64,000 nt of DNA from Tubulanus polymorphus (Eukaryota; Animalia; Nemertea). Positions within the stretch are counted from its first letter, which is position 1. Each line of letters begins with the position of its first letter. Shown piece after piece: positions 3,248 through 61,751 of the stretch. The stretch lies in NCBI RefSeq assembly GCF_964204645.1, contig NC_134032.1:5506275-5570274 (forward strand), written 5' to 3'. The translations under genes were made by a program, and so were the position numbers. The notes beneath the pieces are model-generated. The model saw only the letters and a program-made list of their open reading frames with translations. It had not been told where the DNA came from and did not search any database.

Positions 3248-3287
3248 TTATTTAACAAAAAAATTAATTATTTATTTTTGATCATGG

Positions 3288-4837: not shown

Positions 4838-4854
4838 TTACATAATAAAAAAAA

Positions 4855-5710
4855 TTAAAATTTAAAATATAATATTCCTCCGATTACAAATCCTATACAA
4901 GTTAAAGCTAATTTAGCATTTTCATGGGATTTCTTATCATCATTAGTTTTAATTATATCATGTTGAATAATATCAGTTTTAATATTTTCTGATGTATTGT
5001 AATCTTTTATTTTAGAATCATTATTTAATTTAATATTATTAGTTTTAGTTTCAGTTGATTGAATGTGTTTTTTATTTTTTTCACCTTCCATTAATTTTGG
5101 AGCAGTAATAATCTTTTTATTTATATCATTCAATCCAAATGAATTATTTATTGTTGCAGTTTTAATTAGATTATTATAACCAATTATATTTCCCATCTTT
5201 AATACCAAATCATTAGAAATAATAAATAGATTAGGGCCTATACAATAATTTAATCTAATATGTGTTTTATCTAAATAATTTTGATATCTTACAATGTTTT
5301 CTTGAATCGATCTATTTTTATCATTATGAATGGAATCTTCAAATAATACTTTGAATTGTTTCTGCGCATCGAATGAAGTGTTATCATTTCCAATTATTGG
5401 GGATCTTGTTTCAACTTGAGCACCTAAAATACATATCAAATAAGTTATAATAGATTGATTTATTCTTTGTATACCAGCTTTAGTAAAACCTTCACTATTT
5501 TCTAAAATGAAATTAACCCAACAATTATTATTTTGTTGTTGTATATTATTATAATATTTTGGTAATTCATTCCAATTTAGTGTTCTTATATCTGAATTTG
5601 TCATTATTTTTCCAAATTCTTTAGTATATAATATTCCTAATCCACCCATTGTTCCAATTTTTGCTCTAAAAGCTTTATTTGAATTAATATTAAATTCATT
5701 ACATATTTAT
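4855..5710 (-). pseudogene. Conserved WQNQLNF-family hypothetical protein, 3' part, with C-terminal TM anchor
   Basis: Matches the C-half of 41890-43271. Confidence 0.75.
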
Positions 5711-5739
5711 AATGTGTATATATATGTGCATATATATGT

Positions 5740-5954
5740 GTATTTCCTTTTAATCCTTCATATTCTAAGTGTATAACTAATTTATCTCCATATTTGTTAG
5801 TAACTGTATCAATATTTGTAATTAGATATTTCTTATGGATTATTAATTCTTTTAAGTTCTTAAATTTATAATCTACTGATTTGACATTTGAAGTATCTTT
5901 TATTCTATCTAGAAATGATTTGTTGTTCTCACTGTGCGCTTGTTTACTCTCCAT
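5740..5954 (-). pseudogene. Small OB-fold/SSB-like protein (MESKQ family), truncated
   Basis: Matches the N-terminus of 13975-14328; deletion with filler DNA at about 5710-5740. Confidence 0.75.
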
Positions 5955-5983
5955 TTATAATACATATTTTTATTAAAATTTGA

Positions 5984-9658: not shown

Positions 9659-9764
9659 TGATTGGCTAATGTAATTTCCTAGATGGGTTGTTCTAGAATC
9701 AACATGTAATACGCAATACTCAACGTGTTGAGGCTTGTAAATTATGAGACTTGTGATTAGATAG

Positions 9765-9959
9765 AGTAATAGGGGGTTTAGTTGTTTCATATCAAAGGTT
9801 GAGAGGTTGATAAATTTTCCAAATGTTAAAATAATGATAATTTCTACTTGAATTAGGAGTGTACGCGACTAATTCAAGTAGAAATTATTGTTATTTTCAC
9901 ATTTGGAAAGTTTCTCGACCTCTCGACCATTGGTATGAAACAACTAAACCCCTATTACT
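9765..9959. mobile_element. Foldback (fully palindromic) MITE-like element
   Basis: AGTAATAGGGG...CCCCTATTACT ends; ~90-bp imperfect arms around a GAGTGTACGCGA centre. Confidence 0.75.
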
Positions 9960-10490
9960 TGAGTTATATTAGCAGGTTTAATCAGTTCAATCTCCTTATA
10001 CGTATCAGGAGTTAACTCAGCCACCACGGGGCTAGTATAATCAAACACGACTTCATAAGACTGCGATCCATTTGTCATTGCTGTGAAAACAGTTTCTTGT
10101 GAAGGATCATCAGGTCTAGGAGGAGGAGTTTTATCATAATCTCGTCTACTTAAACCGTCGCATTTGCCATTCTTCTTACCCGGTCGGTGTTCAACAGAAA
10201 AATTATATGCTTGAAGAGCCAATTCCCAACGTCCTATACGTTTATTTAGTCGGTTTTCATGAATATACGTTAAACTTTTGCTATCAGTATACACACTGAA
10301 TTCATTTCCAATCAGGTAGGGATGAAAATTCTGAATTCCTTCAATCAAAGCTAATCCTTCCTTATCACTAATATGCCATTTCTTTTCGTTTACACGTAAC
10401 GCGCGACCACCATATCCGATAACATTTTCTAAATTATTCTTTTTCTGAGACAAAACATAACCGATAGCATAGTCCGAAGAGTCAACTGAG
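9960..10490 (-). pseudogene. Ty3/Gypsy LTR retrotransposon pol fragment (RNase H domain)
   Basis: DSSDYAIGYVLSQ...KEGLAL...VYTDSKSL...RWELALQAYNFSVEHRPGKKNGKCDGLSR is a typical Gypsy RNase H. Confidence 0.88.
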
Positions 10491-10550
10491 AGACTCTCTT
10501 TCAATTGCATAGTAGAATTACTTAGTGTTTCCATATTAAATTGGTAACGA

Positions 10551-10670
10551 GGCATATTTTTTTATCACAATCAATTACAAAATCGTAGCTGCTGACATGT
10601 TCTATGATTGTAGTGAGTTTCAAGGTCATTGGTTTTTGTATATGGTCACCAGGGGGCGTTGAATATTAAA
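10551..10670 (+). mobile_element. Fragment of the same HINE family as 35620-37607
   Basis: Reverse-complement similarity to 35795-35910 (GACATGTTCTATGAT...GTGAGTTTCAAG...CACCAGGGGGCGTTGAA). Confidence 0.65.
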
Positions 10671-10724
10671 ATTGTTAGATTGTTGAGTATTGGAAACCGC
10701 TTCCCAAGTGGGCATGGTGTCCCT

Positions 10725-10915
10725 GAGTAATAGGGGTAATGGGCTTTCAGATCAAAGGACGAAGGGTCGAGCTCGTAAAAAAATGAAAATAACAATAATT
10801 TACAGTTGAATTAGTCGCGCACACTCCTAATTCAACTGTAAATTATTGTTATTTTCATTTTTTACTCACTCGCCCCTTCAACCTTTAACCTGAAAGCCCA
10901 TTACCCCTATTACTC
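10725..10915. mobile_element. Second foldback MITE-like element, related to 9765-9959, centre in opposite orientation
   Basis: GAGTAATAGGGGTAATGGGCTTTCAG...CTGAAAGCCCATTACCCCTATTACTC; centre TCGCGCACACTC. Confidence 0.75.
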
Positions 10916-11024
10916 TTAAAATATTCATATATATATATATATATAAACATAATTTACATGAATAAAATTTCAATTGACAGATTATTCAATTTAAAAGTGT
11001 AAGCTCTTATAGAATAGAGATATA

Positions 11025-19843: not shown

Positions 19844-20617
19844 TCAAACTCTCTCTACCGTATCATCATCAATAGTTGTTTTATTGTTATACTTATTCAT
19901 CCTTTCTACCGCATCATCAAAAGTTTCTTCTTTATCTTTCACCAAAAGTGTGTCCACATAATCTTTAATATCAATATCTGTAACTATATCACCATGTGGG
20001 TGCCATACGGCACCATTTTCATTATCATCTTTTTTAGTGTTTGCTCCTAATATTTCATTTACAATATTTGATCCTAATATTTTATTAGCATCAGTTAAAT
20101 CTAATTCATCTTTATTAGGTGTTGCTAATAATAAATCTTCATATAATTCTTTACCATTTACTTTTTTATTTGAAACAAATTTTGTAAAATATCTAAATGG
20201 GTGTTCTATAAATTCTTTTAAACCAACACGTTCTATAACATTAGTAATATGTGAATTTGTATTCATATGTTTATTCCAATTTGATGGAGCGTTTGAATAT
20301 TCATCTTTACAATAATCACAATAATTTCTATTTTCACTAACATTTAATATTATTGCATTATTAGATGTAGAAGGTATTACATTATTAGATGTAGTAGGTA
20401 TTACTGTAGTAGGTATTACATTATTATCAATTACATTACTTAAATTATCAACAACTTCACCTTTATTCGTATCGATTTCTATTAGTTTAGTTTTATAAAT
20501 TTTGAAAATAGGATCAAATATCAAAGCTATATTACAAGGTATTACATAATATAAACCATCACTATTTTCATGTGTATCGATGTATGGAATATGTTTATAT
20601 ACTTTACCTCCTTCCAT
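19844..20617 (-). CDS. MEGGKVY-family variable protein with one CxxC...H...H zinc finger
   Basis: 257-aa ORF; YCDYCKDEYSNAPSNWNKHMNTNSH; may be slightly 3'-truncated. Confidence 0.7.
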   Translation of the reverse strand: MEGGKVYKHIPYIDTHENSDGLYYVIPCNIALIFDPIFKIYKTKLIEIDTNKGEVVDNLSNVIDNNVIPTTVIPTTSNNVIPSTSNNAIILNVSENRNYCDYCKDEYSNAPSNWNKHMNTNSHITNVIERVGLKEFIEHPFRYFTKFVSNKKVNGKELYEDLLLATPNKDELDLTDANKILGSNIVNEILGANTKKDDNENGAVWHPHGDIVTDIDIKDYVDTLLVKDKEETFDDAVERMNKYNNKTTIDDDTVERV

Positions 20618-21897
20618 TTAATATAAGATTTTTTATTAAAGTTAAAATTATAATACATAACACTATTTAATTGAGAATTTACAATATTTAATTGCGCGTC
20701 AGATATAATATAAATGTGCATTTTAAAATTTTTGATTCCTTTATTCTTTGTCATGAATAATTGTATTCCATCTTTAGTGTTCTGTAGTTTTTTTCCAGAA
20801 CCATGTAATGAGTTATCCTCTGTTGTTCTAAAATCTAACCATAATGCATATTTATTACCGGTATAATAATCAATTTGATTAATGTTACAATTTTCAGATG
20901 ATTTTACTTTTTCATTCATAAAATGTTTTCTAATTTCTGGCCATTGATCTATCATTCTCATCCCTTGACAAAATATTTTATTTGCTATTCCTTCGATAGT
21001 TATTTCTACTTTTGTTATTTCAGGATTATAATAATTATCAACATTTATTGCACCATTTGTATATGTTGCAATGGTAAAAAATATTAATATACCTTTAATA
21101 GATCTTCTTGGGAAGTTAATATTCTCATTAATTATTTCATCAGTTGCATTAATAGTTACGGTTTTAAATTTATCAATATAATCATATAATAATGAAAATC
21201 CTTGATTGTATTGAGTTTGAATTATACTTGAAATATTTTCATCAGTTACTGTATCATATTCTAAACATATATTCGATAATTTATAACTCATATCTTTATT
21301 AACGCTAGATATTACAATTTCATTAACAGGAGCAAATGTTATCTCAAATATAACGTCTTCTTGAATTACATATTTATATAAAGGTGCATTATTATTTATC
21401 AATTCAAAGTCTAATGGAATTTTATATTTGCTTCCATATATACTTTTTATCAATTTATCTACAGCATTAGTTAATATTGCGCTATTAGCTTCTGATCTTA
21501 ATTTATTTTGGTTTTCTGATTGGATTCCTTGAAATATCATATTATTTCTATTTTCTTTAGTTAACCATAAATCTTTATAATGCATAAATAAATTATAATC
21601 ATCTAATGAGAAAACTGTTTCTGGACCAATCTTTATAGTTAATTTTTTAATCAAATATCTTCCAACATTATCAACAACATAATTATTATTATTACCGATT
21701 ACTTTTATATCGGCTGATGAATAAATACTATTTGGAACGTAAAAAGTATTTTGTGTTAATCGAGGGATTCTAACATATAAAGTTTCATCGGGATTAATAT
21801 TAGAAGGGTTATGAGTAATTATATGATGTGATCTTTCTGCTTTAATAGCATTAGATATTCTAGAAATCTTAGAAGGACTTATATAACTCCCACTCAT
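20542..21897 (-). CDS. Major capsid protein (double jelly-roll, hexon-like); stop codon mutated, native end about 20650
   Basis: Near-identical to 38856-40103; position and size as expected for a Polinton-type MCP. Confidence 0.85.
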   Translation of the reverse strand: MSGSYISPSKISRISNAIKAERSHHIITHNPSNINPDETLYVRIPRLTQNTFYVPNSIYSSADIKVIGNNNNYVVDNVGRYLIKKLTIKIGPETVFSLDDYNLFMHYKDLWLTKENRNNMIFQGIQSENQNKLRSEANSAILTNAVDKLIKSIYGSKYKIPLDFELINNNAPLYKYVIQEDVIFEITFAPVNEIVISSVNKDMSYKLSNICLEYDTVTDENISSIIQTQYNQGFSLLYDYIDKFKTVTINATDEIINENINFPRRSIKGILIFFTIATYTNGAINVDNYYNPEITKVEITIEGIANKIFCQGMRMIDQWPEIRKHFMNEKVKSSENCNINQIDYYTGNKYALWLDFRTTEDNSLHGSGKKLQNTKDGIQLFMTKNKGIKNFKMHIYIISDAQLNIVNSQLNSVMYYNFNFNKKSYIKWKEVKYINIFHTSIHMKIVMVYIM

Positions 21898-33158: not shown

Positions 33159-34596
33159 ATGAAAAAAGAACAATATTTAAGAGATTTATATTATAACCCA
33201 GAAAGTGAAGTATCATATTCTAACGTTTCAGAATTATGGAATAAAATTAAATCTGATAAAGAAAATGGTAATATAAAATATAGTGAATTAAAATCATGGT
33301 TACAAAATCAACCAACATATCAAATCCACAAGAAAATGGATAAAACTTATTTAACAAGAAAAGTTATGGTTTCATATATCGATCAACAATGGCAAGCAGA
33401 TTTAATTGACATGAAGAACTTAGAGGCGTTTTTACGAGCATCCGATTTTTGCGATCGATCGTAGGAACGCATTTACGAGCACCGATTTTTGCGATCGATT
33501 TCACGATCGGCGTTTTTACGAACACGATTTTCCGATCGATTTTTGAAATCGACCAACTCGCTCGGCGAGCGATTTGGCGATTTGATTTCCAAGATAGCAG
33601 CACCGGGTAGTTCAAAACCATACATTTTTTCCTCAACGTCGCCATATTTATGTCATGTGATTAGCCAAATCCATCGTCATTTTTACGAACGTTCGATTCG
33701 ATCGTACGATCGGAGCAAATCGTTCACGAAATCGATCGCAAAAATCGGATGCTCGTAAAAACGCCTAACAAGAATACAACAAAGGATATTTCTGGATATT
33801 AAATGTTATAGACAAATTCAGTAGATACGCATGGTCAATTCCAATCAAAAATAAAACTGGAATAGAAGTAACAAATGCTTTTAAATCTATATTTAAAAAA
33901 GCAATTCCAGATAAGATACAATTTGATGAAGGTAAGGAATTTTATAACAAACATTTCAAAAAACTATTATCTGATAACGATGTAAATTGTTTTTCAACAC
34001 ATTCAGATAAAAAAGCATCTATTATAGAAAGATTTAATAAATCATTGAAAACTAGAATGTGGAAATATTTTACTGCTAATGAAACATATAAATATATCAA
34101 TGTGTTAGATGATTTAGTGAAAGGTTATAATAATTCTAAACATAGTTCTATAAATATGAAACCTATACAAGCTAGAAAAGAAGATAATTCAGAAATAGTT
34201 TGGAATAATTTATATGGAGCATTTGTCACACATGATTTAGGCGAACCTAAATTTAAAATTGGACAACACGTTAGAATATCTAAATATAGAAAAACCTTTT
34301 ACAAAGGTTATACCCCTAATTTCACTGAAGAAATATTCAAGATTAAAAAGATAATATTAACTAAACCGTTTGTTTATAAATTAGAAGATCTTAAGGATGA
34401 AGAAATATTAGGTTATTTCTATGAACAAGAATTATCACTTGTACCAAACCCAGATGAAATAGAATACAAAATAGAAAAAGTATTAAAAACAAAAACTCTT
34501 AAAGGAAAAAAGTATTCTTTAGTGAAATATAAAGGATACGATGATAAATTTAATGAATGGATTTTATCTAGTAAAATTAAAAGAATAAATGAATAA
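33159..34596 (+). pseudogene. rve integrase-chromodomain interrupted by a MITE
   Basis: Colinear with 17777-18808 on both sides of 33424-33766. Confidence 0.9.
33424..33766. mobile_element. 343-bp MITE, possibly PIF/Harbinger-type
   Basis: Perfect 36-bp TIRs AGGCGTTTTTACGAGCATCCGATTTTTGCGATCGAT; internal sub-repeats; absent from the 17777 integrase; TSD not cleanly resolved. Confidence 0.88.
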
Positions 34597-35207: not shown

Positions 35208-35230
35208 AATCCTAATTTGGAATATTATAG

Positions 35231-35620
35231 AAACTAATTTATATATCTATGTACTAGACGTACGAGTAAGAAAGTAAGATTCTTGCTAAGAAAGTAAGAA
35301 AGTAAGAATCTTGGTAAGAATTCTTACGTACGTCTAGTATATAGATATATAAATTAGTTTTATAATAATTATTCTAAATTTAAATTATAAAAATGAATAA
35401 ATTATATGTTTTCTCTTAATAGAAATAAAAATAGATTATATTATTACTATTTCTATACTTAGATTAATAATTTTATGTTTTTAATTTTTATGAAAACTAA
35501 ATTATATATCTATGTACTAGACGTACGAGTAAGAAAGTAAGATTCTTGCCAAGAAAGTAAGATTTCTTGGATTCTTGGATTCTTACCAAGATTCTTACGT
35601 ACGTCTAGTATAAAGTTATA
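35231..35620. repeat. Two copies of a ~130-bp hairpin in the convergence region (34-bp arms around GTAAGAAA/TTCTTG repeats)
   Basis: 35231-35264 pairs with 35327-35360 (one mismatch); second copy 35494-35620 continues at 37608 after the HINE. Confidence 0.75.
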
Positions 35621-37607
35621 CAAGAGCCCCAAGGGGCACAATGGCCAGCCTGTCAGATTTGCTTTTTATAAATGATGTAATCTGTGGGTTATATTTATCA
35701 ATATACACTCCCTGCTCAATATCATTTACATAGTAAAATCGTGTGCTAACACAGACAGCAGGAACGAATGTAATATAGAAATACTAAGTTATTGTATTGT
35801 TCAACGCCCCCTGGTGGCCATAAAAAAAACAATGAGCTTGAAACTCACCTCGATCATAGAACATGTCATGAGCTACAACTTTCCAATTGATTATAGTAGC
35901 AAAATATGCTTAAGTATCAATTATGATGTGGAAAAACTTTTTTTTCCACCTACGAATGAGTACTGATGACCCCAAGATGGCTGCCAAGTGCGTCATAATT
36001 GCCTGGTCAAAAATACCCTCTCGGATATAAAAGATCCCTTTCCAAAGAATACCCATTACAAATTGCAATGAAACATGGCGCACCATTAGAAAGCTACAGT
36101 ACTCAGAATTCAGGCCAAAATTGACATTTTTGGGAACAAAAAAGGTCACAGTACGGCCATCTTGAGTCCGATCGACTCAATTTTTCTCATGCCGATGGGC
36201 CCTCGGGGGATACAAATATATACGAATGATCAAGGTTATTGATAAAAGTGTCTTCAAAATTTCCCTCGAAAACTTCAAAAATGTGTTGATTTTGGCGAAC
36301 AACAATGGCTGCCAGTCGGCCATCTTGAATCTGACAGGGCCAGTTTTTGGCCTGAAGATGTGTCTAGTGTAGATACACGTATAAAACAAATATCAAGACA
36401 TTACCTTGAAGCGTCTTCAAAACTTTGGAACTCTCACGAACTATCTAGATGGTTATCTCTCGACCTCAATAGCTTCAAGACCCATCTCAAAACAACTTTG
36501 TTCCATGCAGCATACCATTAACTCTCGGAAAGCGAATTGTATTTAACATTTTTTGGCAGAATAAAATTTGATTGAATTTGCAATTCGGGCACATGGCTAA
36601 TTAGCATATCAAGGTCACACACCCGATTTGGTAAAACCTTTTTTCGCGAACCTTGCGCAATTGTCAAGGATGAATTTTCTGTAGAGCAAATAGAAATTCC
36701 TCCCAAACACCAAATCAACTAAAGATTTCATAGAAATCGATCTTGAAATACAATTTTAAATCTTAGAATAAAACCCGGAAGTAAAACAGTAGACGATACC
36801 GCGGATTCACGTAAACACCTGATTTCTGTAAACGAAATGTTGGTTGTGACAAAATTGTTCAGACGGTTTTAGGTGGTAATAAGTACGGAAACGTAACGAC
36901 CATGGTCGACTTATTCGATGAAATCAGGCCTATGTGATATCCAAATTTTGACTTTTTTATTCTCCAGACCTCCCTGATATAGAAATAAAAAATTTTGGTG
37001 GTACGAAAGTGCAATCACAGCGCCGACGGGGAGAGAGCCGTGTCAGAGATCGGTGGAGTGAAAATTGAGGTGGACGAACACGAAGAAGTAGGCTATTGCG
37101 CTACTTGAATCACGAAAACTCCTGGCGCGGCCCTGACGCTTTTCGTTGATTAAGTAATACAAATATCATGCAATGGGTTTTCACAATCTACCGCTGGTAT
37201 TTACCGGATTTCAATATCACTCCAAAATTCAAAGAAACCTCGAAATATCGAACCGGAACACTTCCGGTAGATATCCGCGGCTGCCCAACCGGGAAACTTA
37301 TTTGTTTCAATAGATATTGATAGGATCCATCATCTTCACCCATCAAGGGATTCGAACCCACTAAGCTAAAGCCATGCCAGAATCGGGTCGGGCCAATCAC
37401 AGCGCTTGTTACAAACCACATTAGGCTTCTGTGGAATTTCCCAGTAAAATTCTGCTCGCTACGATTCCGAGAATGGATTACGCTTAAATACGTGATTTGT
37501 TCGAATATGCCCTCACTTGGCAAGCAAAAGAGCCTTTTGTGTGGAAACCATGTCATTTAAATTCGCTCCATTTGTATAGTAATAGGCTCAGCCTACGGCT
37601 GGCCTAA
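35620..37607 (-). mobile_element. Non-autonomous Helentron-associated element (HINE / DINE-1-like)
   Basis: On - strand starts TTAGGCCAGCCGTAGGCTGAGCCT (subTIR plus hairpin) and ends CAGGCTGGCC...GCCCCTTGGGGCTCTTGT (subTIR plus stem-loop); no TSD; splits the viral hairpin; higher GC. Confidence 0.75.
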
Positions 37608-45929: not shown

Positions 45930-48900
45930 TTAACACGTTAGAATTCTTTTCATTATCTCGTTCTCTTTTGTTTTTTCTCTTTTAAATTTTAAGTATTCAT
46001 CTAAATTACAACCATAAGCAACTGTATGAATTCCATCATCTAAAATATATCTTTTATCATCAAATGGGTTTAGACTTATCTTTTAAATTTCTTCAATAAA
46101 CATTTCATGATCTTCAGATCTTAAACATCTCATCTTATGTTTTCTAACTTCTTCATTGAATATACAATTTATGTAATCTTTGAAATGAATATTCTTTTCT
46201 ACTACACTTTTGGTTATTCCTTTTAACTTTTTAGCTTCATGTTCTTTAGTTTTATATGAATACATTCTAGATCTAATACCAATGAATTCAATCATTTCTT
46301 CACCACCTATTTCATCTTTGAATTTACCGGGAACTTTTTTATTATCATTGCTAAACAATTCATGATTTTTAGGATAGTTACTAAAATCAAAATGATGTTT
46401 TAATGTTTTTAAATCATCAGTTATGTTATCAGTTTTTATCTTTAATATGTAAGAATCGGTATCAAAATATAATATTTCTATATGTTTTTCTCCAAAAAGT
46501 GGTTGTAATACATTATAATAGAATTCATACATTAGTAATTTTGATAATTCTAAAACTGAAGCGCCAACATAGATTGGTTTATTAAATTTCATAGAAGTTC
46601 TTCTCATCTTAACTGCGGCTAAATTTTCATCAAATATTCTGTTACCTAAAAACGTAGGATATGATTGTAAATGTCTAATTCTTTTACCATTACTGACTAA
46701 CTCAATATCATTTCTATTTCTAATATTTTCACAAGTCTTACCATAGAATGCATTATTCATTAACTTGAAGAAATCTTTTTCGAAATCAGTTTTAGCTTTA
46801 GTTCTCTGTTTGGTGTTAAAATCTATATATTTTTCTAACCACTTAGATTGGTTAAATGAAATATATCTATGTACTTTTTTTAGAACCATTCCTTGATTCA
46901 AATAAAACTTCAACATTCTATAATGTACTACATAATTATATTTATCTTCTTGAGTTACCATTAACTTTTCTGTATGAATATGATTTTCGGGTTTAATTCT
47001 TTTTTGATAATTTGATAATTCTTCATGAGTTACAGTTTTATGTTCAGGACAGTAAGCTAGATTTCTAGATTTAAATTTAATATGTTCAGGATATTCTAAA
47101 TCTACAACAAAGAAGTAACCAGTATCTGAATCATCTGCAATATCTAGGATTCTTTTCTTCCAATCAAATTTATCATTATTTTCATTCTGTAAAACTTCAG
47201 TTAATTCAAATACTCCATAAGGTTGTGGTTCCATCATTGCCCAACCATACAAATTATTTGCATCTATATATACTAACTTATATCCAGGGTTATCATTTAC
47301 ATTGAAATATCTATCACCTAATACACCTGAAACACCTCCTCTTATAGATTTTTCAAATAATAGTAATTGATCTATATTTGTTAACAAATCCATTTTTATA
47401 TCTGTAAATTTTAATCCACAATCCCATGTTAATCCTGGTGATGAATAACAATGGCAAGGATCAATATTAAAATATTTTAGGTTTACATCTCTAAACCTTT
47501 CGAATATATCGGTTAATAATAATACATCTGATTTTAGATATAAATCAACTAATTGCCCATGATTTTCTATTTTGAAATGATTCCAAATATTCAATGTTCT
47601 ATTATAGACTTCATCTTTAACATATTCGTTTTTTAATTCATCATAGAATTGTTCTTTCAATAATTCAGTTATGTTAAAATCATTATGATTTTTATAGAAA
47701 GAATATGGAATTGCTCCTTTATATCTCATTAATTTAAAATCATCAATATTTGGGTAATGTTGCTTTAATATTTTTAATTCATCATCAACTAATGATTTTG
47801 ATAAGTTATCTAATGAACTATTTAAAAATCTATATGAATCTATAAATCTTAGGCAACCAAATTGGAATGATATATAATTCTCAGATGTTTTAGCTAACAT
47901 TCTAAATTTATAAGTTGGTATTTTATCTTTTGATCTATTTGAATTTAATATTTCTATTTCATTATTAATTTCTTCTATTTTATGACATAAGTGTTTGATT
48001 AATAAATGTGCATCATATCCTGATAGATTATGAAATATAACTGGTACAAAATTAATTTTCTTAGCTTGTAAGTTACAATTCTCATGTGCAAATGATCATG
48101 GTCTCTTACTTTTTTATCTTTATAATTAAATATCTTTTCACAATAATAACATTTACCTGAAAACACAAATTCTTCTTTATCTTCTTCTGTCATTATAATT
48201 TCTATATTTGTATTCAATAATTTACTAAATCTTATTTCATATTCAATTAATAAGTCACAAAAATGATTGATAACATTTTCATTTCTATAATTATAATATT
48301 CACTTTCAATTAGTTCTGGATAATCAGATTTTATATATAACCCGAAAGCAGCAGCTGATTGATGAATCTTTTTAATAGTATTTGTTTTTGGTGGTTCATC
48401 TGAAAAATCATTTTCATTAGAATTCAATTTCTTTCTTTTATAATATATTTCTTTTCTATCTTGATCAGTTAATACTTTATTTAATGATTCAAAATCTCCA
48501 TATATAACAAATGGTACTTTATTTTTGTAATGATATTTTTTGAATTCTAATATTTTATCCTTTTCATTTGGTAAAACTAATTTGCAATAATCATGATTTT
48601 CACATAATTGTTTATGATTTAATAATGTACTTTCATTACTGAATTTATGTAAACATTTTCTACATAGATATATTTTATTATGGTGATCACTTTCTGTTCT
48701 AAAAAATAAATCTATTTGTTTAATCCACATATAATGATTCTCATAATATAGTATATCTATAACATCATTTGAATCATAATCTTTTGATAGATATAAAGGT
48801 TCTAATGTATAATGTTTTATGTTGTTACCTTTTGTATTTGGTAATTTGATTAAATCAAATACATTTATTCTTAAATTATTATCTCTTTCTATTTTTGGGA

Positions 48901-49815: not shown

Positions 49816-50334
49816 GACCAATTGATTTAATACAATATGCTTCGACCATACGGAAACATCCTTACGGGATCCTAAAGACGGGTGATAGGATCCCGTAAGG
49901 ATGTTTCCGCATGGTCGAATCATTTTGTCTACCGCTTCGTGAGGGCAGATCGCAGGTATACCTTCGATCCTGACGATGGTAGGAGTCTCCAAAGCCCATC
50001 GAAACTGTATAGTCGCTCCTCTAAACATAATCCTGTGGTTTTTTAGAATGGTGTATTGTTCGTCAGATCCACAAAATACTCCCCCGTTGTAAGTGTTGAA
50101 GTCAATTACTTTTTCAACACATCGGCGAGCCGTATCATCGTTTGCCAAGATTTCACGTATCTGGTCAGTTTTAAGTTTATTGTACTGAACCCTAACTTTA
50201 GGGACCAGTAAGAAGTTTTCGAAGTCCTTAGCCATCGTGTTGTTGTATTTGAATGTATTCGCCTGGAGTAGAGCCATACTTAGTCAATTGAAGAGCGCGC
50301 CGAAAGTACGTCCGTACAGTAAGCAAGCGACACA
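49816..50334 (-). mobile_element. 5' fragment of a Tx1/L1-like non-LTR retrotransposon (5' UTR plus truncated ORF1, 49813-50277)
   Basis: Higher GC; TIVRIEGIPAICPHEAVDKMIRPCGNI resembles the ORF1 RRM segment; lies between two viral fragments. Confidence 0.6.
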
Positions 50335-50826
50335 GATGAAATTATTAATGAGAATATTAACTTCCCAAGAAGATCTATTAAAGGTATATTAATATTTTTT
50401 ACTATTGCAACATATTCTAATGGTGCAATAAAGGTAGATAATTATTATAATCCTGAAATAACAAAAGTAGAAATAACTATCGAAGGTATAGCAAATAAAA
50501 AATTTTGCCAGGGAATGAGAATGATAGATCAGTGGCCAGAAATTAGAAAACATTTTATGAATGAAAAAGTAAAATCATTCGAAAATTGTAATATTAATCA
50601 AATTGATTATTATACCAGTAATAAATATGCATTATGGTTAGATTTTAGAACAACAGAGGATAATTCATTACATGGTTCTGGGAAAAGGCTACAGAACACT
50701 AAAGATGGAATACAATTATTCATGAAAAAGAAAAAAGGAAGCTTAAATTTTAAAATGCACATTTATATTATATCTGACGCACAATTAAATATTGTAAATT
50801 CACAATTAGATAGTATTCAATATTAG
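50335..50826 (+). pseudogene. Major capsid protein 3' fragment
   Basis: DEIINENINFPRRSIKG...QLDSIQY. Confidence 0.85.
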
Positions 50827-50860
50827 AAATATAAAGTTAAAATTAAGAATATATAAATGG

Positions 50861-51985
50861 GTGGTAAAAAAAACTCCTAATACTAAAGAACAATATTTAA
50901 GAAATTTATATTACAACCCTGAGAGTTCGGTTGCTTATTCTTCTACCAAAAATATATGGCGTCAAGTAAAACAAGATAAATTAGATAAGATAATCCCACA
51001 AAATTTAGTTAAATATAAAGATATAAATGAATTTATGTTAGAACAACCAACATACACAACACATAAAAAAATTGTTAGAAAATATAAAACTCGTAAAACT
51101 ATGGTAAGTTATGTAGATCAACAGTGGCAAGGAGATTTAATTGATATGAAAAATGTTAAGAAAGATAATGATGATTATTGGTGGATATTGAATATAATTG
51201 ATATTTTTAGTCGTTATGTATGGAGTTTCCCACTTTATAGAAAAGATGCTGCACAAACATCAAATGTTTTAAGAAAATTTCTTTCGGATGATAAACTAAA
51301 ACCAGAAAAAATACAATTTGATGATGGAAAAGAATTTGATAATTCACTTGTTCATAAACTCTTAGATAATCATAATATTAAATATTTTTCAACAAAATCG
51401 GATAAAAAAGCAGCAGTTGTTGAACGATTTAATAGAACATTAAGAACAAGAATGTGGAAATATTTTACAGCAAATAATACTTTTAAATGGATTGATGTTT
51501 TACCAAAATTGATAGAAGGATATAATAATTCTTATCATTCTTCTATTGGAATGAAACCTATCGATGCTAGAAAACCTGAAAATGCTGAAATTGTTTGGAA
51601 TAATTCATATGGAGCATTTCTTGTAGATGATTTTGGTGAACCTAAATTTAAAGTTGGTCAAAATGTTAGAATTTCTAAGTATAAAAAGATATTTGACAAG
51701 GGATACGATCGAAATTTTACTAGGGAAATATATAAAATAAAAAAGGTAATAACAACAAAACCACATGTCTATAAATTAGAAGATTTAGATGGTGAAGAAG
51801 TTGATGGGTATTTTTATGAAGAAGAATTGAGTTTAACTACTGAAAATCTAGAACAAGAATATAAAATTGAAAAAGTATTAAAAACAAAAACTTTTAAAAG
51901 AAAAAAATATTCTTTAGTAAAATGGGTTGGATGGCCAGATAAATTTAATGAATGGATATTATTAAGTAAAATTAAAAATATATAA
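50861..51985 (+). CDS. rve integrase-chromodomain, divergent paralogue (likely true ATG at 50857 with an A-run frameshift)
   Basis: QWQGDL, QFDDGKEF and VERFNRTLR motifs; LVKWVGWPDKFNEWI chromodomain. Confidence 0.9.
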   Translation: MVKKTPNTKEQYLRNLYYNPESSVAYSSTKNIWRQVKQDKLDKIIPQNLVKYKDINEFMLEQPTYTTHKKIVRKYKTRKTMVSYVDQQWQGDLIDMKNVKKDNDDYWWILNIIDIFSRYVWSFPLYRKDAAQTSNVLRKFLSDDKLKPEKIQFDDGKEFDNSLVHKLLDNHNIKYFSTKSDKKAAVVERFNRTLRTRMWKYFTANNTFKWIDVLPKLIEGYNNSYHSSIGMKPIDARKPENAEIVWNNSYGAFLVDDFGEPKFKVGQNVRISKYKKIFDKGYDRNFTREIYKIKKVITTKPHVYKLEDLDGEEVDGYFYEEELSLTTENLEQEYKIEKVLKTKTFKRKKYSLVKWVGWPDKFNEWILLSKIKNI

Positions 51986-52592: not shown

Positions 52593-52870
52593 ATTCAACA
52601 GGTTTGTTAATCTATTACATATTTAGTTACATTCTAATTGCATTCTACTTATTGGTATTTGAAACAAAAATCAAATAAAATTCAACAATATTTTAACTAG
52701 CTTGTTAATCTAGTATATTTGTAGTTACATTCTAGTTGAATTCTAGTTATTGGTTGTTGGAACAAAAATCAACTAGATTTAACAAGAAATAAATAAAAAC
52801 AACAATATTTCAACTAGCTTGTTAATCTAGTTGAATTCTAGTTACATTCTAGTTAAATTCTAGTTGCAAC
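52593..52870. repeat. Intergenic array of CTAGTT/GAATTC-core short palindromic repeats
   Basis: Recurrent CTTGTTAATCTAG, GTTACATTCTAG and CTAGTTGAATTCTAG units; related sequence at 31940-31970 and 58800-58850. Confidence 0.65.
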
Positions 52871-52897: not shown

Positions 52898-53503
52898 ATG
52901 GGAGGTGAAAAGAAAATAAAATCTAAAATTGGTGATGTTCCAATTGAAAAAACTTTAGATGATTTAGGAATAACAGAAACAAAATTAACTCCAGATGATG
53001 GTGCTTTAAATAATGTTACAACAAATAATAATTATGAATATTATCTTTATTGTAAACATCAATTAGAAATATTAATAGCATCTGGAAAATGTAAAAATTA
53101 TATTGGTAAAAATTTAACTTATAATGAATTAGATACAATGAAACCAGATGAAATTATTAGATTATTTAAGATTTATGAAGCCGCGCGAACAGCTAGAATT
53201 AATGACGCAATATCAGAAAATGTAGTAAAAGGTTATAGTAAATTATGTAATTATATACTACCAATTGAAGATGAAAATAGATTATATTCCGATTTAAAAA
53301 ATGATTATTTAGTTATGACTGAATTAAATAAATGGATTGGATATTTATCATTTCAATTAGGTGAATTTATGACATTATTATCAACTGGAGTTATAACATT
53401 TTCAAATATTGAAAGTAAAAATTTTTCTATAATAAATGAGCGAGGTGGAAGAAGTGAAGGAATTAACTGTGAAGAAAAAACCGAGAACTCAGAAACAAAT
53501 TGA
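52898..53503 (+). CDS. Hypothetical protein (201 aa), divergent homologue of 32153-32761
   Basis: Shared IEKTLDDLGI, YEYYLYCKH, FKIYE and NDYLVMTEL motifs. Confidence 0.75.
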   Translation: MGGEKKIKSKIGDVPIEKTLDDLGITETKLTPDDGALNNVTTNNNYEYYLYCKHQLEILIASGKCKNYIGKNLTYNELDTMKPDEIIRLFKIYEAARTARINDAISENVVKGYSKLCNYILPIEDENRLYSDLKNDYLVMTELNKWIGYLSFQLGEFMTLLSTGVITFSNIESKNFSIINERGGRSEGINCEEKTENSETN

Positions 53504-53954
53504 ATGGTCTCGGCAATTATGAATTAAATCACAAGAATATAAAAAGCTGTAAAAGAAAAAATAAGTAATAAAAATGGTGAAAATATTGTCCAGATAAGTC
53601 ATTTCGGATTCTAGATATTCATTATTTTTATTAATTTATTTTGTTTTTTTAATTTGAAGTTTTTACTTGAATATTGTATTACAGTCGTTTCTTATTATTA
53701 GTTTTTTCTTAAATTGAAAGATGGCAGCACTGGGTGTGATGCTAAAATGAATATTTGAATTTGAATTTGTTAATCAATTAACATGGTAATTGATTACTAA
53801 TTTGATTAAAAATTATATCATAATTAAGTTAAAAATCCATAATTCATTTATCAGTTTTCATTCTTATATTCTTTTCATTCGGAATAATTTATAATTTCAA
53901 ATTTCACATATTTTTTTTAGCACCAGCAACATTTACTTAGGTGTTTTAGCTAAG

Positions 53955-53961
53955 TATATAA
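53955..53961 (+). promoter_or_regulatory. TATA box about 30 nt upstream of the candidate structured RNA
   Basis: TATATAA at 53955; terminal stem begins at 53986. Confidence 0.5.
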
Positions 53962-53985
53962 GGCAATTCATTCGACCACTGGAGT

Positions 53986-54271
53986 GCCGCCACTGGCTTG
54001 CAGGGGCATTTCGAAAATGTACCTTTGTCCACCCTCCGTGGTTCTCCTTCACTTTCGACTTTCGATCCTCCTTTCGGGGGTAAGGGGTTGATAGGAAATG
54101 CATTAGGCGCCTTTAATATAATGTGTTTCCTGTCAACCATTGAAGGAGAATTGGTGAGGTGTGGGTCACAGGGGTGTAAGTAGAAATGCTTGGGGATAGG
54201 TATCTCGTGGCGCCTCTCAATAACGGGATGCTTATCCCCTAAAAACTCTGCGAGTCAAGTCGGGTGGTTTT
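53986..54271 (+). ncRNA. Candidate novel structured ncRNA (~285 nt, Pol III-like) with two GGCGCC-loop hairpins
   Basis: Seven compatible helices found by hand, many G-U pairs (plus-strand specific), upstream TATA, first TTTT directly after the closing stem. Confidence 0.65.
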
Positions 54272-54582
54272 GCTAAAACTTACCGTAAAAACATTGAAAT
54301 ATTCCTTTTAATCACGAGAGAGAGAATGTATCCTGTCCTGTGTGTGTTGTACGTATTGCGTGCTTATTATATAACTGCTAGCTATCCAATATAACAACAA
54401 CGTTTAATTGCAACACCTGTTTGATCGATCAATGTTCAAATGAAGCACTCTCTTATAATAACATGTAACAGATGTTTGGCTGTATGATTGTAGTTGTTCG
54501 TAAAACGACTAAAGTCATTTTTAGATATTCATTATTTTTATTTTTTATTTAATCAACAATTTCTAAATCATTATGACCGTCT

Positions 54583-54876
54583 TCATTTTTTTCCATGATA
54601 GATTATTTTAAATCCTTCTAAATCTTTTAATTCCTCTGTACTCAATGAAACCCATTTATCGGGTAAAAATACTTTAAATTCTCGCGATGTACTAACATTA
54701 CAGTAACTTAAATTCGCTGATACTTTCTCTCCATATTTAGTTTTTATCTTTTCTAATTTCAATATTTTATGTTCAATTTCTTTTGTAACATCAACTAACT
54801 TTTTTATTTCAAATCGTTTTTTTGCTGGTTTTATTTTGTTATTTATTGTTGCTAAGAATGCTTTTCTATCTCCCAT
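54583..54876 (-). CDS. Divergent paralogue of the 117-aa OB/SSB-like protein (possibly with a premature stop)
   Basis: KTKYGEKV...FKVFLPDKW..LSTEEL...YHGK aligns with NNYGDKL...FRTYLPDRF..LSSEDL...YKGK. Confidence 0.6.
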   Translation of the reverse strand: MGDRKAFLATINNKIKPAKKRFEIKKLVDVTKEIEHKILKLEKIKTKYGEKVSANLSYCNVSTSREFKVFLPDKWVSLSTEELKDLEGFKIIYHGKK

Positions 54877-57028: not shown

Positions 57029-58762
57029 TTATTTATTTTTTATCATGTTTACTAACCCAAAAATAATTGCACTTACAACTGTAATTAAAAATAAAATAAT
57101 ATGTTCAGCAGCAAAGTTAATAATGTCTCCTGCAGATTTCAATATAAAACCAACAATTGATGCAATAACTCCGGGCAATGCTGCAGCAGATTTTTTAGAT
57201 AGTTCCCATAAATATTTTGCTAATTTCTTTAAACCATCCTTAACTTTATCTTGTATAGAATTATTATCTGGGGGTTTATCTGGTTTATTGGGAGTAGGAG
57301 TAGATTTTAAAGCATTTGATATAGCTAAACCAATTGTTGTAAATACCATAGTTACAGCTGTTAGAATTGAAAGAATTGTTATTCCTTCTAATTTAAATAA
57401 TAATTTTATTCTATCTTTCAATGATATTTCAGAATTTGGTTTTATCAACAAATCTTTAAAAATAACTTTTAATTTTTTAATATGATTAAGATCATATGAT
57501 TTTAATGATATATCTCTTTCTTTTTCCTGTAATTCTTTGTTATATTTTAAATCATCTATTTGTTTTTCTAAAGCTAACTTTCTGCTTTCATAATCAGCTT
57601 CCTCTATTACTTGAAGATTTTTATTTAATTCTAATTGTTTTAATTCTTCATTTGCATTAGCTAATTCTTTTTCTAAAATGGTTAATTTAGAAAATCTCAT
57701 CTTAATATTAGCAATTTCACCGGCTGATTCTTGCATACCTTTAATTTCTCTACGTGCTTGTTCAGGAAATGCTTCTAATTCATCATCAGTTAAATCAAGT
57801 AATCCTTTTTCTAGTAAAGATTGTATTCGATTTATTCCAGTACTATTCATCTCTTCTTCTGAATCTCTTAATCTATCAATTTGTTTTTCTAATACTAATT
57901 GTAATTGACTTGAATCATTATCAATTTGTTGAATATCTCTTCTCGATGTTTCGGGTGTTGAAAATCTTAATTTATCTAATCGATCTCCATCCTCTTCCAT
58001 TTCTGGTTCTAAATTATCATAGATTTTGTCAAATAACTCATTAATTCTTAGTTTGAATTCTTTTCTATTTATTTCTTCTTGTGTTACATCTTCTAGTTCA
58101 TTACTATTACTTATTCTTTTAATTCTAAATGTTTCAAATTTTCTCAAAGTTGATTCTGCTAATATTATATTTTGATTTTTATAAGTGATATTAATATAAT
58201 AATCATCTTTCAAATGATAATAATATTCACCATCTAAATATATTAATTCTTGTGCTAAAAGTCTGGCGCCTTTATCATTTATATTATATCCAGAATCTTT
58301 AAATACAGGTTTGAATTTATATATAAATTCATTTTTTTCTAAATCTTGTCTTGATAAACCTGGATTTTCATTTTCAGGTTTTATTCTCGATCTAGTTTTT
58401 CTAATATATTCCTCTGTTGACGGGGCTTTATGACCACTATCTGCTAAATTAGAATTATATGCTGATTCATCATCATTATCAATATTAGTATCAGCAGACA
58501 CATAATCATCATCGTTAGTATTGGCATCATCATTATTTCCTCTGTTTTCCATTTCATAATCTTCTCCACCTTCAAAATAATCCTCACCTAAAATATCATT
58601 ACTCATATTTCTAATATGGCTTTTAGATTTTAAATGTTCATTATAATATCTTTTATCACTGAATGATTGATTACATGTATCACATTTATATGTTTCTTTT
58701 TCATTCTTTAATTCATCTAATTTAGTTTCTAGTATATCATCTTTATATTCTAGTTTCAACAA
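57029..58762 (-). CDS. Chimeric ORF: PolB N-terminal Zn finger fused in frame to a variant acidic/coiled-coil/TM protein
   Basis: KLEYKDD...ILGEDYF (PolB) joined to EGGEDY... at about 58572; C-half matches 40143-41873. Confidence 0.75.
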   Translation of the reverse strand: MLKLEYKDDILETKLDELKNEKETYKCDTCNQSFSDKRYYNEHLKSKSHIRNMSNDILGEDYFEGGEDYEMENRGNNDDANTNDDDYVSADTNIDNDDESAYNSNLADSGHKAPSTEEYIRKTRSRIKPENENPGLSRQDLEKNEFIYKFKPVFKDSGYNINDKGARLLAQELIYLDGEYYYHLKDDYYINITYKNQNIILAESTLRKFETFRIKRISNSNELEDVTQEEINRKEFKLRINELFDKIYDNLEPEMEEDGDRLDKLRFSTPETSRRDIQQIDNDSSQLQLVLEKQIDRLRDSEEEMNSTGINRIQSLLEKGLLDLTDDELEAFPEQARREIKGMQESAGEIANIKMRFSKLTILEKELANANEELKQLELNKNLQVIEEADYESRKLALEKQIDDLKYNKELQEKERDISLKSYDLNHIKKLKVIFKDLLIKPNSEISLKDRIKLLFKLEGITILSILTAVTMVFTTIGLAISNALKSTPTPNKPDKPPDNNSIQDKVKDGLKKLAKYLWELSKKSAAALPGVIASIVGFILKSAGDIINFAAEHIILFLITVVSAIIFGLVNMIKNK

Positions 58763-59061
58763 TGAAATAATACAAGAGTGATACTAACAGTTAAAGTTAT
58801 TGAATTTCTTGTTAAATCTATTTGAATTCTAGTCAATTCTTGTTAACCAATAGCGCGAATAGAAATCAAATAGATTTGAATAAAAAAACAATAATTTAAA
58901 TAAGTTAGTATTAGATAAAGTAACTTATTGTTTTTTTATTCAAATCTATTTGATTTCTATTCGCGCTATTGGTTAACAAGAATTGACTAGAATTCAAATA
59001 GATTTTACAAGAAATTCAATAACTTTAACTGTTAGTATCACTCTTGTATTATTTCATTGTT
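58758..59061. repeat. Long hairpin: 137-bp inverted arms (one mismatch) with a 30-bp loop
   Basis: 58758-58894 is the reverse complement of 58925-59061. Confidence 0.92.
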
Positions 59062-59948: not shown

Positions 59949-61751
59949 TCAAATAACAATTAAACTTACTACTAATTCTTTATGCCGCTGAGAATTATAT
60001 TTTTGCTTGTGCGTAATCAATTTTATCACCTGATATTCTGTTATATTATTCTTGATCATTTCGTTATCGAAAAATTCATTTGATATGTAAATATTTTCAT
60101 CATTATGAATTAAAATTAGATGGCGCAATTTATTTCTAAAATATCTACGATTAATGAAATCAATATTATATTCAGAATTATCTTTCAATAGTTCTAAACG
60201 CTCGCATTGCTTAATTTTCATATTGTTAAGTTTCATTTTTCTTAAATAATCAGATTCTTTACGTATATCACATACATTTATGAAATCATTAGAATTTATC
60301 TTTAAATATTCAGTATATTTTTTCATCAATTCAAAATCCATTTTATCAATTATTTCAAAATGATCTTGTGTTATCTTCTTTACTTGGAAAATAGGTTTTT
60401 CTAATTTTGATAAAATAAAGTGTCTATCAGGGCTATGAACGCCTATTTTTAACTTTTTGATGATTTTTTCTATCGAAGACAATTCAAAATAATTATTATT
60501 TAATACGTCTAATTGTAATGTTTTTATCAATAATTCTCTTAAATCAGTAGTAGTTTCATAAAAGCCTTGATCTGTTAAAATATAACTGAAATAAAGATCT
60601 GTTATACATTTACATTGAGTTGAAAAACCTCTAATTTCAAAAATTGTATTATTGTCAATTCCAGATATTTTAGGAGTATAATCATTTAATTTTACTTCAG
60701 GAATTATTTCAAGTTTTTTAAATTCTGTCTCAAATAATTCATTATCAATATCTAATTGTTGCTTTAATTCATTACAAATTTTATTTCTATTTTCATCTAT
60801 ATCTTCTTCTAATTGTTTAAGTTCTTTCATTTCTTCTAACTTTTTAAATTCACTTTTAGACAATAATTTTAAATCAAAATCTTCTTCAACATCAAATGCA
60901 TCTAATTTATAAACAGGTTTAGATTTTATATTGTATCTCTTTTTTAAAGTTGTAAAACTAATTCCTGTTTCACGTAATTTAAATCTAAATATAAATTTAT
61001 TCAATACTGTAAACATTGAATTAGTTGAAGATATAACAGTTGCTCCTTCAGTTTTAATATATTTTTTTGCTTCAATAATGAATTCTGATTTATCATCATT
61101 TTGATCAATTGTTAGGTATAAACATGGGATATTCTTAATTGTAAACATTGATAAAATAAGTAAAAAGGAGGACTCTTCAATATTTTTATTTATCCTAGAT
61201 TTATATCCTATAAATTTCCTTGCTAATAAATCACCATAATAACAGAAATAAAAGCATTTTTCAATCAAATCATAAATACATACAGTCTGTTGAACCTCAT
61301 CAAATAATGATTTAAGTTGTAAATATGTAGGTGAATAGTAAATATTTTCTTTTTTTAAGTATTGTTTTATTTTTTCCATCACTTTTAATCCTCTTTTAAA
61401 TGAAATACCTGTTATTTCAATTCTAATCAATCCTGTTTCAATTGATTTTTCAAATGATTCTTTTAGCCTCTCTTGATAGCAATTTATGTAACTCATTAAA
61501 TTTGAACCGAAATTTATATTTACACCAGGAGATTTGAATTGACATGCTGTTTTATTATAGATCTTTATTTTATCATCCTTATGTAATGCTGAAACACAAC
61601 TATTGGAAAATTCTTTTAGAACTTTATATTTTATATTTTCGAACATTGATTTTATTTCATCTGAATTAAATGATCCTTTAAAATCTTGTGTTACATCTAC
61701 ATCTAATATATTGTAATTTTTTTCATTTAATAATTTTTCAATATTATCCAT
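59949..61751 (-). CDS. 600-aa protein with putative Rep_trans / phage gpII-like nicking domain at the N-terminus
   Basis: Intact ORF; D19xxxD23, KIY65NK and GLIR110IE112I occur in the order of the Rep_trans active-site motifs (function is inference). Confidence 0.55.
   Translation of the reverse strand: MDNIEKLLNEKNYNILDVDVTQDFKGSFNSDEIKSMFENIKYKVLKEFSNSCVSALHKDDKIKIYNKTACQFKSPGVNINFGSNLMSYINCYQERLKESFEKSIETGLIRIEITGISFKRGLKVMEKIKQYLKKENIYYSPTYLQLKSLFDEVQQTVCIYDLIEKCFYFCYYGDLLARKFIGYKSRINKNIEESSFLLILSMFTIKNIPCLYLTIDQNDDKSEFIIEAKKYIKTEGATVISSTNSMFTVLNKFIFRFKLRETGISFTTLKKRYNIKSKPVYKLDAFDVEEDFDLKLLSKSEFKKLEEMKELKQLEEDIDENRNKICNELKQQLDIDNELFETEFKKLEIIPEVKLNDYTPKISGIDNNTIFEIRGFSTQCKCITDLYFSYILTDQGFYETTTDLRELLIKTLQLDVLNNNYFELSSIEKIIKKLKIGVHSPDRHFILSKLEKPIFQVKKITQDHFEIIDKMDFELMKKYTEYLKINSNDFINVCDIRKESDYLRKMKLNNMKIKQCERLELLKDNSEYNIDFINRRYFRNKLRHLILIHNDENIYISNEFFDNEMIKNNITEYQVIKLITHKQKYNSQRHKELVVSLIVI

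Follow-up and report, generated by a model that had tools for sequence, protein, structure and literature searches.

The adenovirus VA RNAs are viral transcripts of RNA polymerase III (Pol III), ∼160 nt in length, with terminal, central and apical domains and internal A and B boxes. The pRNA of bacteriophage phi29 carries loops that are complementary rather than identical, and its partner in packaging, the ATPase gp16, lies in another branch than the A32 ATPases. In retroviruses, the DIS of HIV-1 and the pal II and PBS GGCGCC of the mouse virus MMTV present a GC-rich 6-nt palindrome in a hairpin loop, and GGCGCC has been implicated as a dimer contact in MMTV RNA (passages of PMC4264320). OLE, ROOL, GOLLD, ARRPOF and manA are self-assembling RNAs of bacteria and phages (passages of PMC12990946; 10.64898/2026.07.01.735769; PMC12286853), among which ARRPOF (255 nt) dimerizes by kissing loops and manA pentamers use kissing loops (PMC12990946; 10.64898/2026.07.01.735769). 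The oligomeric RNAs tabulated in the review bear bacterial, phage or RNA-virus names, and the string "eukaryot" is absent from both of the texts searched (PMC12990946; 10.64898/2026.07.01.735769).

The window studied here, i.e., the whole 64,000-nt stretch of Tubulanus polymorphus DNA that was analyzed (contig NC_134032.1), carries a predicted RNA of ∼286 nt at 53984..54271 on the plus strand, with a GC content of 49% as against 22% upstream and 34% downstream. The start (53984-86) was deduced from the closing stem and the spacing to a TATA box, and the end was set at a T4 run. Similar to the VA RNAs, it is noncoding and highly paired, belongs to a protein-primed dsDNA lineage, ends in a terminal stem followed by a T run and has no continuous helix longer than 20 bp; it differs from them in its length of ∼286 nt, the upstream TATA, the two palindromic loops, the location in an optional insert and the absence of the internal A/B boxes of a type 2 promoter. 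The palindrome in a hairpin loop is shared with the retroviral DIS, but here there are two such loops per molecule, each 13-14 nt long and carrying the palindrome in its 5' part, in a stand-alone RNA with no LTR or gag and with no internal repeat or long ORF in the insert. Long regular helices are common to this RNA and to the bacterial and phage assemblies, and kissing loops are its predicted contacts, whereas the window RNA is eukaryotic, bears Pol III-type signals and lies inside a Polinton. As in phi29, two loops could link molecules, and the host element has a protein-primed polymerase and a packaging ATPase; unlike pRNA, the window RNA is optional, its loops are identical and palindromic and the ATPase is of A32 type. 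No Rfam family reached the gathering score over the element, the outcome of a check asked for with the initial annotation, and this separates it from VA RNA, pRNA and the bacterial assemblies alike. The TATA ∼30 nt upstream and the closing stem followed by T4 recall the host type 3 Pol III RNAs (U6, 7SK, RNase P/MRP, Y), and the insert between direct repeats recalls virus-captured SINEs such as the taterapox SINE (passages of PMC9578709); in contrast to both, there is no family match, and a promoter and ∼250 bp of 3' flank came along.

We read the locus as a TATA-driven Pol III RNA, an accessory cargo of the Polinton, that would self-assemble by loop kissing and would likely act as a dsRNA-like decoy, and we give this reading a probability of roughly 0.4. 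Beyond the initial annotation, the analysis found the stem duplication, the loop-E-like motif, the insert between direct repeats, and the empty and diverged filled copies.

Polinton surroundings and the optional insert

Polintons and adintoviruses are recognized by a protein-primed family B polymerase together with an rve integrase (passages of PMC8502044). The initial annotation had placed the RNA in a Polinton cluster, and this was borne out by a family B polymerase, an rve integrase, an A32 ATPase and a predicted double jelly-roll capsid in the window, the genes expected of a Polinton or adintovirus. The features around the RNA are as follows:

46083..47900, minus strand: protein-primed family B polymerase, in part (PF03175, E 6.9e-15)
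51035..51985, plus strand: rve integrase (PF00665, E 4.5e-10) with a weak chromodomain match
52898..53503, plus strand: Polinton ORF of 201 aa, left neighbour of the insert, with homologues in L006, L008, L009, L023 and elsewhere in the window
54583..54876, minus strand: right neighbour of the insert, a 97-aa Polinton ORF sharing 72% identity with an L008 gene
55782..56423, minus strand: piece of the major capsid gene, with a homologous copy at 20542-21897

The packaging ATPase belongs to the poxvirus A32 family (PF04665, E 5.8e-12 and 3.5e-11). Pfam and PDB sequence searches alone gave no match for the capsid; the copy at 20542-21897 was predicted as a double jelly roll (pLDDT 81.8), with the PBCV-1 capsid as the best match (E 4.1e-16, TM 0.60). 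The Polinton copies in the window are nested and truncated.

The related Polinton loci used for comparison (L006-L026) are 21 metagenome loci encoding the capsid protein, most of them short. The insert with the RNA sits between two convergent Polinton genes, both of which have homologues in L008, and the slot of the RNA is occupied there (10340-10981) by a deoxynucleoside kinase (PF01712, E 1.7e-31), which makes it a variable cargo site. At this region L006 runs on into a match to the HNH-like gene of the window (Pfam E 0.019 only). Neither a blastn match to the RNA nor a GGCGCC hairpin was found in the 21 loci, only 4 of which reach the neighbouring gene. Searches of viral contigs (capsid, ORF201 and integrase queries) and prokaryote genomes gave no related Polintons.

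Several other features of these elements were observed. A second capsid-gene piece at 50332-50860 is oppositely oriented and immediately precedes the integrase, an arrangement also present in L008 and L010, which indicates that this Polinton copy is a chimera of gene orders. A near-perfect palindrome with arms of ∼150 bp (58758-59061), whose two strands fold equally, lies beside a 5' fragment of the polymerase. Palindromes or twin repeats of differing sequence were found just downstream of the ATPase gene in several subfamilies (window 35225-35352, 35488-35623 and 52604-52865; L006 3763-3805; L009 3183-3255) and are possibly an origin or terminator. Two MITE-like fold-backs of ∼200 bp (9763-9959 and 10726-10916) run in opposite directions and share 73% identity; their stems measure 29-37 bp, and their 12-nt loops are almost the same. 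A fragment of LTR-retrotransposon RT/RNase H (9944-10555) lies between Polinton pieces. A GC-rich unique insert at 49817-50331 holds a 34-bp hairpin (49841-49919) and a 154-aa ORF without a Pfam match, by eye similar to a LINE ORF1 fragment. An integrase gene is split by a MITE-like 345-bp insertion with terminal inverted repeats at 33425-33769, and a 600-aa ORF at 59949-61751, unique in the window and without a Pfam match, has three relatives at 37-52% identity.

The RNA was found once in the window, which holds pieces of several Polinton copies, and it lies in an insert flanked by direct repeats:

53596..53641, no strand assigned: left direct repeat, with an exact 21-nt core at 53612-32
53633..54521, no strand assigned: optional insert of ∼0.9 kb, unique in the window
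54512..54550, no strand assigned: right direct repeat, with the exact core at 54522-42

The two cores lie 910 bp apart and bound the insert. Its left edge is T-rich (17 of the 23 letters at 53633-55 are T; 23-mers with at least 16 A or T make up 1.1% of the window), and its 3' flank is higher in GC and CpG than the Polinton genes. With direct repeats, a T-rich edge and a GC- and CpG-rich 3' flank, the insert looks like a capture, judged by its sequence features. For comparison, the repeats at LINE-1 captures in poxviruses average 15.9 bp; one such case in cowpox combines a repeat of 18 bp with a tract in which 16 of 21 letters are A and with more extended homology in the flanks (passages of PMC9578709).

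The empty site was detected in DNA runs of the host species, as a joint from 53530 to 54541 in X4 and as a loose end at 54522 in X1. In X4, the depth fell from 28,292 to 2,994 at the left repeat and rose from 4,128 to 31,643 at the right, a drop of 8- to 9-fold, and ranged over 2,994-7,916 across the insert, a depth not being a copy number; such a profile would fit a cassette that moves as a whole and is present in the minority of copies. In X1 and X2, the step at the left repeat was present and the right repeat was without one (1436 to 1332 and 244 to 427, respectively). The stretch 53876-54545 was over-represented, with X1/X4 ratios of 0.13-0.44 as against 0.02-0.12 in ten other bins, and GC does not account for this (0.348 vs. 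0.027 at an equal GC of 0.28). Two of the three runs, X1 and X2, over-represent the RNA and its 3' flank relative to the 5' flank (here too, depth is not copy number), which would fit copies outside this Polinton site. The window copy is itself linked to a Polinton, and X4 suggests the same for other copies. At least three sequence types cover the RNA in X1, at depths of 621, 230 and 42 and with 4, 36 and 13 differing letters, respectively. The differences of the deepest type fall in the asymmetric loop at 53992-93, at the wobble at 54020 and at the mismatch at 54052 of the window copy; by eye, and among the 40 of 252 rows listed, all of these are pair-compatible and one-sided.

These observations bear on the strongest alternative, a real though minority possibility, that the RNA is a passenger. 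In this case one Polinton would have received a copy of a multicopy host RNA gene not yet catalogued, or of a non-autonomous selfish element, and the copy would have been amplified with it. The copying could be due, for instance, to a LINE-type enzyme using an antisense or read-through transcript, so that the upstream promoter would come with the copy; the RNA would be real and may kiss and still be useless to the Polinton. The exact 21-nt repeat core, the T-rich left edge and the likeness to LINE-mediated poxvirus captures (passages of PMC9578709) are in agreement with such an origin, as are the over-representation of the RNA and its 3' flank in X1 and X2, the copy type with 36 differences over 210 letters and the related Polinton loci without trace of the RNA. 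However, the flank depth in X4 is close to the RNA depth, which argues against a SINE multiplied as the 286-nt transcript alone, and no tRNA, 7SL or 5S head was detected. In addition, A-rich tracts are common between Polinton genes, and no loose end was found at the inner insert borders among the 20 of 451 rows listed.

Strand-biased fold and twin GGCGCC loops

All 85 of the 85 positions in the seven helices drawn by the initial annotation pair (6 + 12 + 7 + 11 + 12 + 20 + 17), 17 of them as G-U, and G-U pairs occur in six of the seven, in line with its remark that most helices use them. The plus strand folded with RNA parameters at -140.9 kcal/mol (z -10.45) and the minus strand at -86.4 kcal/mol (z -3.55), and in either case 0 of 200 shuffles were as good. 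The MFE structure contains 108 pairs, including 20 G-U; its 1x1 mismatches number no more than two, which lie at the outer end and do not include A-C. As A-C would be as frequent as G-T in a decaying DNA palindrome, the lack of A-C mismatches points to RNA. The earlier choice of RNA over a DNA palindrome was thus upheld by a strand-biased fold with G-U pairs and without A-C mismatches between paired neighbours. It is highly probable that the structure was selected at the RNA level, and the locus holds a real, probably selected RNA structure of an uncatalogued family. A coding sequence was rejected as a reading, the longest ATG-started frame in the insert being 64 codons. The predicted elements are the following:

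53986..54268, plus strand: terminal stem, predicted, of P1 53986-91/54263-68 (6 bp) and P2 53994-54005/54246-57 (12 bp)
54006..54189, plus strand: long arm of P3 (7 bp), internal loop, P4 (11 bp), two 4-bp helices and P6 (12-13 bp)
54013..54182, plus strand: internal loop, predicted unpaired, GAAAA 54013-17 facing AGUA 54179-82
54052..54085, plus strand: upper multiway junction, for which one or two small hairpins are predicted weakly (pair probabilities 0.5-0.6)
54086..54138, plus strand: hairpin A, 20 uninterrupted bp (3 G-U), 13-nt loop 54106-18, GAUAGG at 54090-95
54192..54239, plus strand: hairpin B, 17 uninterrupted bp (3 G-U), 14-nt loop 54209-22, GAUAGG at 54195-200

The internal loop GAAAA/AGUA, spotted after the fact, we take to be a loop-E/sarcin-ricin-like GAA/AGUA motif with two extra A residues. 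The linkers of the lower junction measure 0, 2 and 6 nt, which is the pattern of family C; hairpin B is flanked by the 2-nt linker and by the 6-nt linker (UAAAAA). Junctions of this family have their third helix tilted toward the stem at the other end of the long linker (passages of PMC3575829; 10.64898/2026.09.15.751775), so that loop B would be turned to the terminal stem, away from loop A, which would favour intermolecular pairing.

Loop A, GGCGCCUUUAAUA (54106-18), and loop B, GGCGCCUCUCAAUA (54209-22), both open with GGCGCC and are predicted to be open (unpaired probability at least 0.91). Of their 14 aligned columns, 12 are identical, and among 100,000 random loop pairs 0 scored as high; two GGCGCC words were found in 4 of 5000 shuffles. 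The hexamer has no partner elsewhere in 53951-54300, even with wobble pairs allowed, and among 19 hairpins with stems of at least 12 bp on both strands of the window and L006-L026 (291,822 bases), only A and B carry a GC palindrome in the loop. The loops are thus near-identical as initially described; the stems, said to differ in sequence, turned out on pairwise alignment to have GAUAGG in both 5' strands. The 3' partners of this segment differ at two places between A and B with pairing retained, and AAUA of the loops is common to both hairpins in addition to the palindrome and GAUAGG. The shared segment suggests that the hairpins are likely old duplicates in which pairing and loop were kept and the rest drifted.

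The proposed capacity for kissing is supported by computation on isolated strands, in which A-A, A-B and B-B pairings are all possible with 6 bp and -14.1 kcal/mol each. We consider it rather probable that the GGCGCC loops kiss. If they do, contacts between molecules are slightly favoured over contacts within one, since a palindrome is needed solely for an intermolecular kiss. A literature search on the hexamer gave mostly retroviral papers.

In an alternative that we regard as improbable, loop A kisses loop B of the same molecule and the RNA is a compact monomer, an RNA-origami-like two-helix bundle, or else the loops bind a protein or a tRNA 3' end. The lengths suit an internal kiss, in which both loops would be consumed, the long arm having a 5' strand of 46 nt and a 3' strand of 49 nt as compared to 43 bp for hairpin A, the kiss and hairpin B together (20 + 6 + 17). 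Binding of a protein or a tRNA would be in agreement with the conservation between A and B of the non-palindromic AAUA and the stem GAUAGG beyond the needs of pairing, and loop B, taken together with the U that closes it, gives UGGCGCC, with which the primer-binding site word of MMTV begins (passages of PMC4264320). However, the family C rule points hairpin B to the terminal stem, an internal kiss needs no palindrome, and loop A lacks the U required for a tRNA 3' end.

A Pol III precursor of two small RNAs, of pri-miRNA or siRNA type with the common loop as a processing signal, is still less probable. Foamy viruses possess dumbbell small-RNA precursors, and the two hairpins of 53 and 48 nt, which are long and uninterrupted and contain G-U pairs, recall these. 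The Microprocessor needs a basal stem of ∼11 bp and single-stranded flanks; the hairpins here, however, rise from multiway junctions without such a stem or flanks and are short for pre-miRNAs, and the palindrome and the loop-E-like motif would be left unexplained.

There is slight chance that the structure is one of single-stranded DNA with a part in replicating or packaging the Polinton, or else a DNA fold-back element in decay. The element folds as DNA too, with a smaller gap between the strands (z -6.41 for plus and -4.64 for minus with DNA parameters), and several DNA fold-backs occur elsewhere in the window. These have near-equal energies on both strands, e.g., -111.6/-111.2 at 58801, whereas the minus strand of the element loses most of the RNA-fold advantage; RNA is also indicated by the branched layout, by the loop-E-like motif and by G-U pairs in the absence of A-C, and the element is optional.

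Candidate transcription signals and family searches

For the preferred reading as a Pol III transcript, the following signals were considered:

53719..53732, plus strand: AGATGGCAGCACTG word, ∼260 nt upstream of the RNA and once in the window, a speculative distal promoter element
53955..53961, plus strand: TATATAA, candidate external promoter of U6/7SK type, 29-31 nt before the deduced start
54268..54271, plus strand: T4 run, a candidate terminator for Pol III, immediately behind the closing stem

The TATATAA reported upstream of the fold was found in place, 29-31 nt before the closing stem. As the window holds 120 TATATAA on both strands, its position alone is informative. An internal T4 is indeed absent, as had been noted, but this is no signal, since 21% of 5000 shuffles also lack T4. 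The weak A-box- and B-box-like motifs did not hold up, as none of the four consensus patterns tried matched, and a TATA-type promoter is thus the better reading.

TAAATG is a word of poxvirus late promoters. Starts at TAAATG were found for 26 of the 69 ORFs in the window, 7 of 8 in L006, 13 of 14 in L008 and 5 of 7 in L009, as compared to 6-9% of all ATG; most intact genes of these Polintons thus begin at this word. The RNA makes no use of this signal, which counts against the accessory-cargo reading, and its TATATAA followed by GGC occurs once among the 120 TATATAA sites. That its TATATAA is not a TAAATG start signal favours a host-type nuclear promoter. Transcription by Pol III from an external promoter appears fairly likely on these grounds. 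The one sequencing run presumed to be RNA gave a single aligned record, away from the element, which speaks neither way on transcription. A bacterial promoter scan gave 1 site vs. 4.8 expected, with a bacterial model that is not apt for a eukaryote, and promoters are not treated in the passages of PMC11296320.

Among the models for SRP, 7SK, RNase P/MRP, Y, vault, snRNA and tRNA, none matched, the best over the RNA having E 3.4 (17 bits), and ARAGORN found 0 genes in the window. A group I intron and a hammerhead were rejected, with no Rfam match and with the core words absent on both strands, and so was a tRNA-derived SINE, having neither a tRNA, 7SL or 5S head nor an internal promoter (Rfam, ARAGORN, box patterns). 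A pattern scan of viral contigs gave 5 matches without a hairpin, and further scans gave 1 match (0 closing pairs) and 0. Metagenome contigs gave 0 matches, and prokaryote genomes gave 15, with 0-4 closing pairs as compared to 17-20 in the window RNA. Blastn against phages and plasmids gave no match to the RNA. No homologue outside this species was thus found in collections that are mostly prokaryotic or viral and leave the eukaryotic range unbounded. The initial annotation knew of no such RNA from Polintons; no ncRNA gene was found in the Polinton/adintovirus literature searched (subscription journals and supplements lying outside its scope), and six RNA terms gave 0 matches in PMC8502044.

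Proposed role of the RNA

The suggestion of a pRNA-like ring in the packaging motor drew on the protein-primed polymerase and packaging ATPase of the element and on two interlockable loops, and it is now extremely improbable, because the RNA is optional and absent from most copies (an empty site, a single window copy and no trace in the related loci reaching the region), has no Rfam match and comes with an ATPase of the poxvirus A32 family (PF04665), gp16 being of another branch.

In the accessory-cargo reading, the host Pol III would transcribe the cassette from its own upstream TATA box to the T4 run, and the ∼286-nt RNA would take the shape of a long, rigid rod that bears the two duplicated hairpins and has no helix longer than 20 bp. 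The GGCGCC loops would pair with those of other molecules to form dimers or short chains, in which each newly formed kissing helix would be bridged by the A-rich stretches on the 3' side of the loops, and the product would offer the dsRNA-binding proteins of the host a decoy or scaffold, in an accessory role. That the Polinton benefits from the RNA stands at slightly under even odds, and a putative VA-like decoy role as the form of this benefit is doubtful. It is also unlikely, and a little more so, that a Polinton subfamily recruited a eukaryotic RNA whose two identical sticky ends let it build rings or filaments of RNA alone, with constitutive Pol III transcription from the integrated copies; the protein genes of the element would in that case wait at their poxvirus-type TAAATG starts.

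Native gels and cryo-EM could be applied at low cost to an RNA of ∼286 nt that carries two identical palindromic loops. If rings or filaments were formed, this would be the first Polinton ncRNA gene in the literature searched and a eukaryotic counterpart of the self-assembling bacterial RNAs. If the RNA belongs to the host, it would represent an uncatalogued multicopy structured RNA family in a eukaryote. If it serves the element, it would provide a handle on a counterpart of the VA-RNA strategy among the integrating relatives of adenoviruses.
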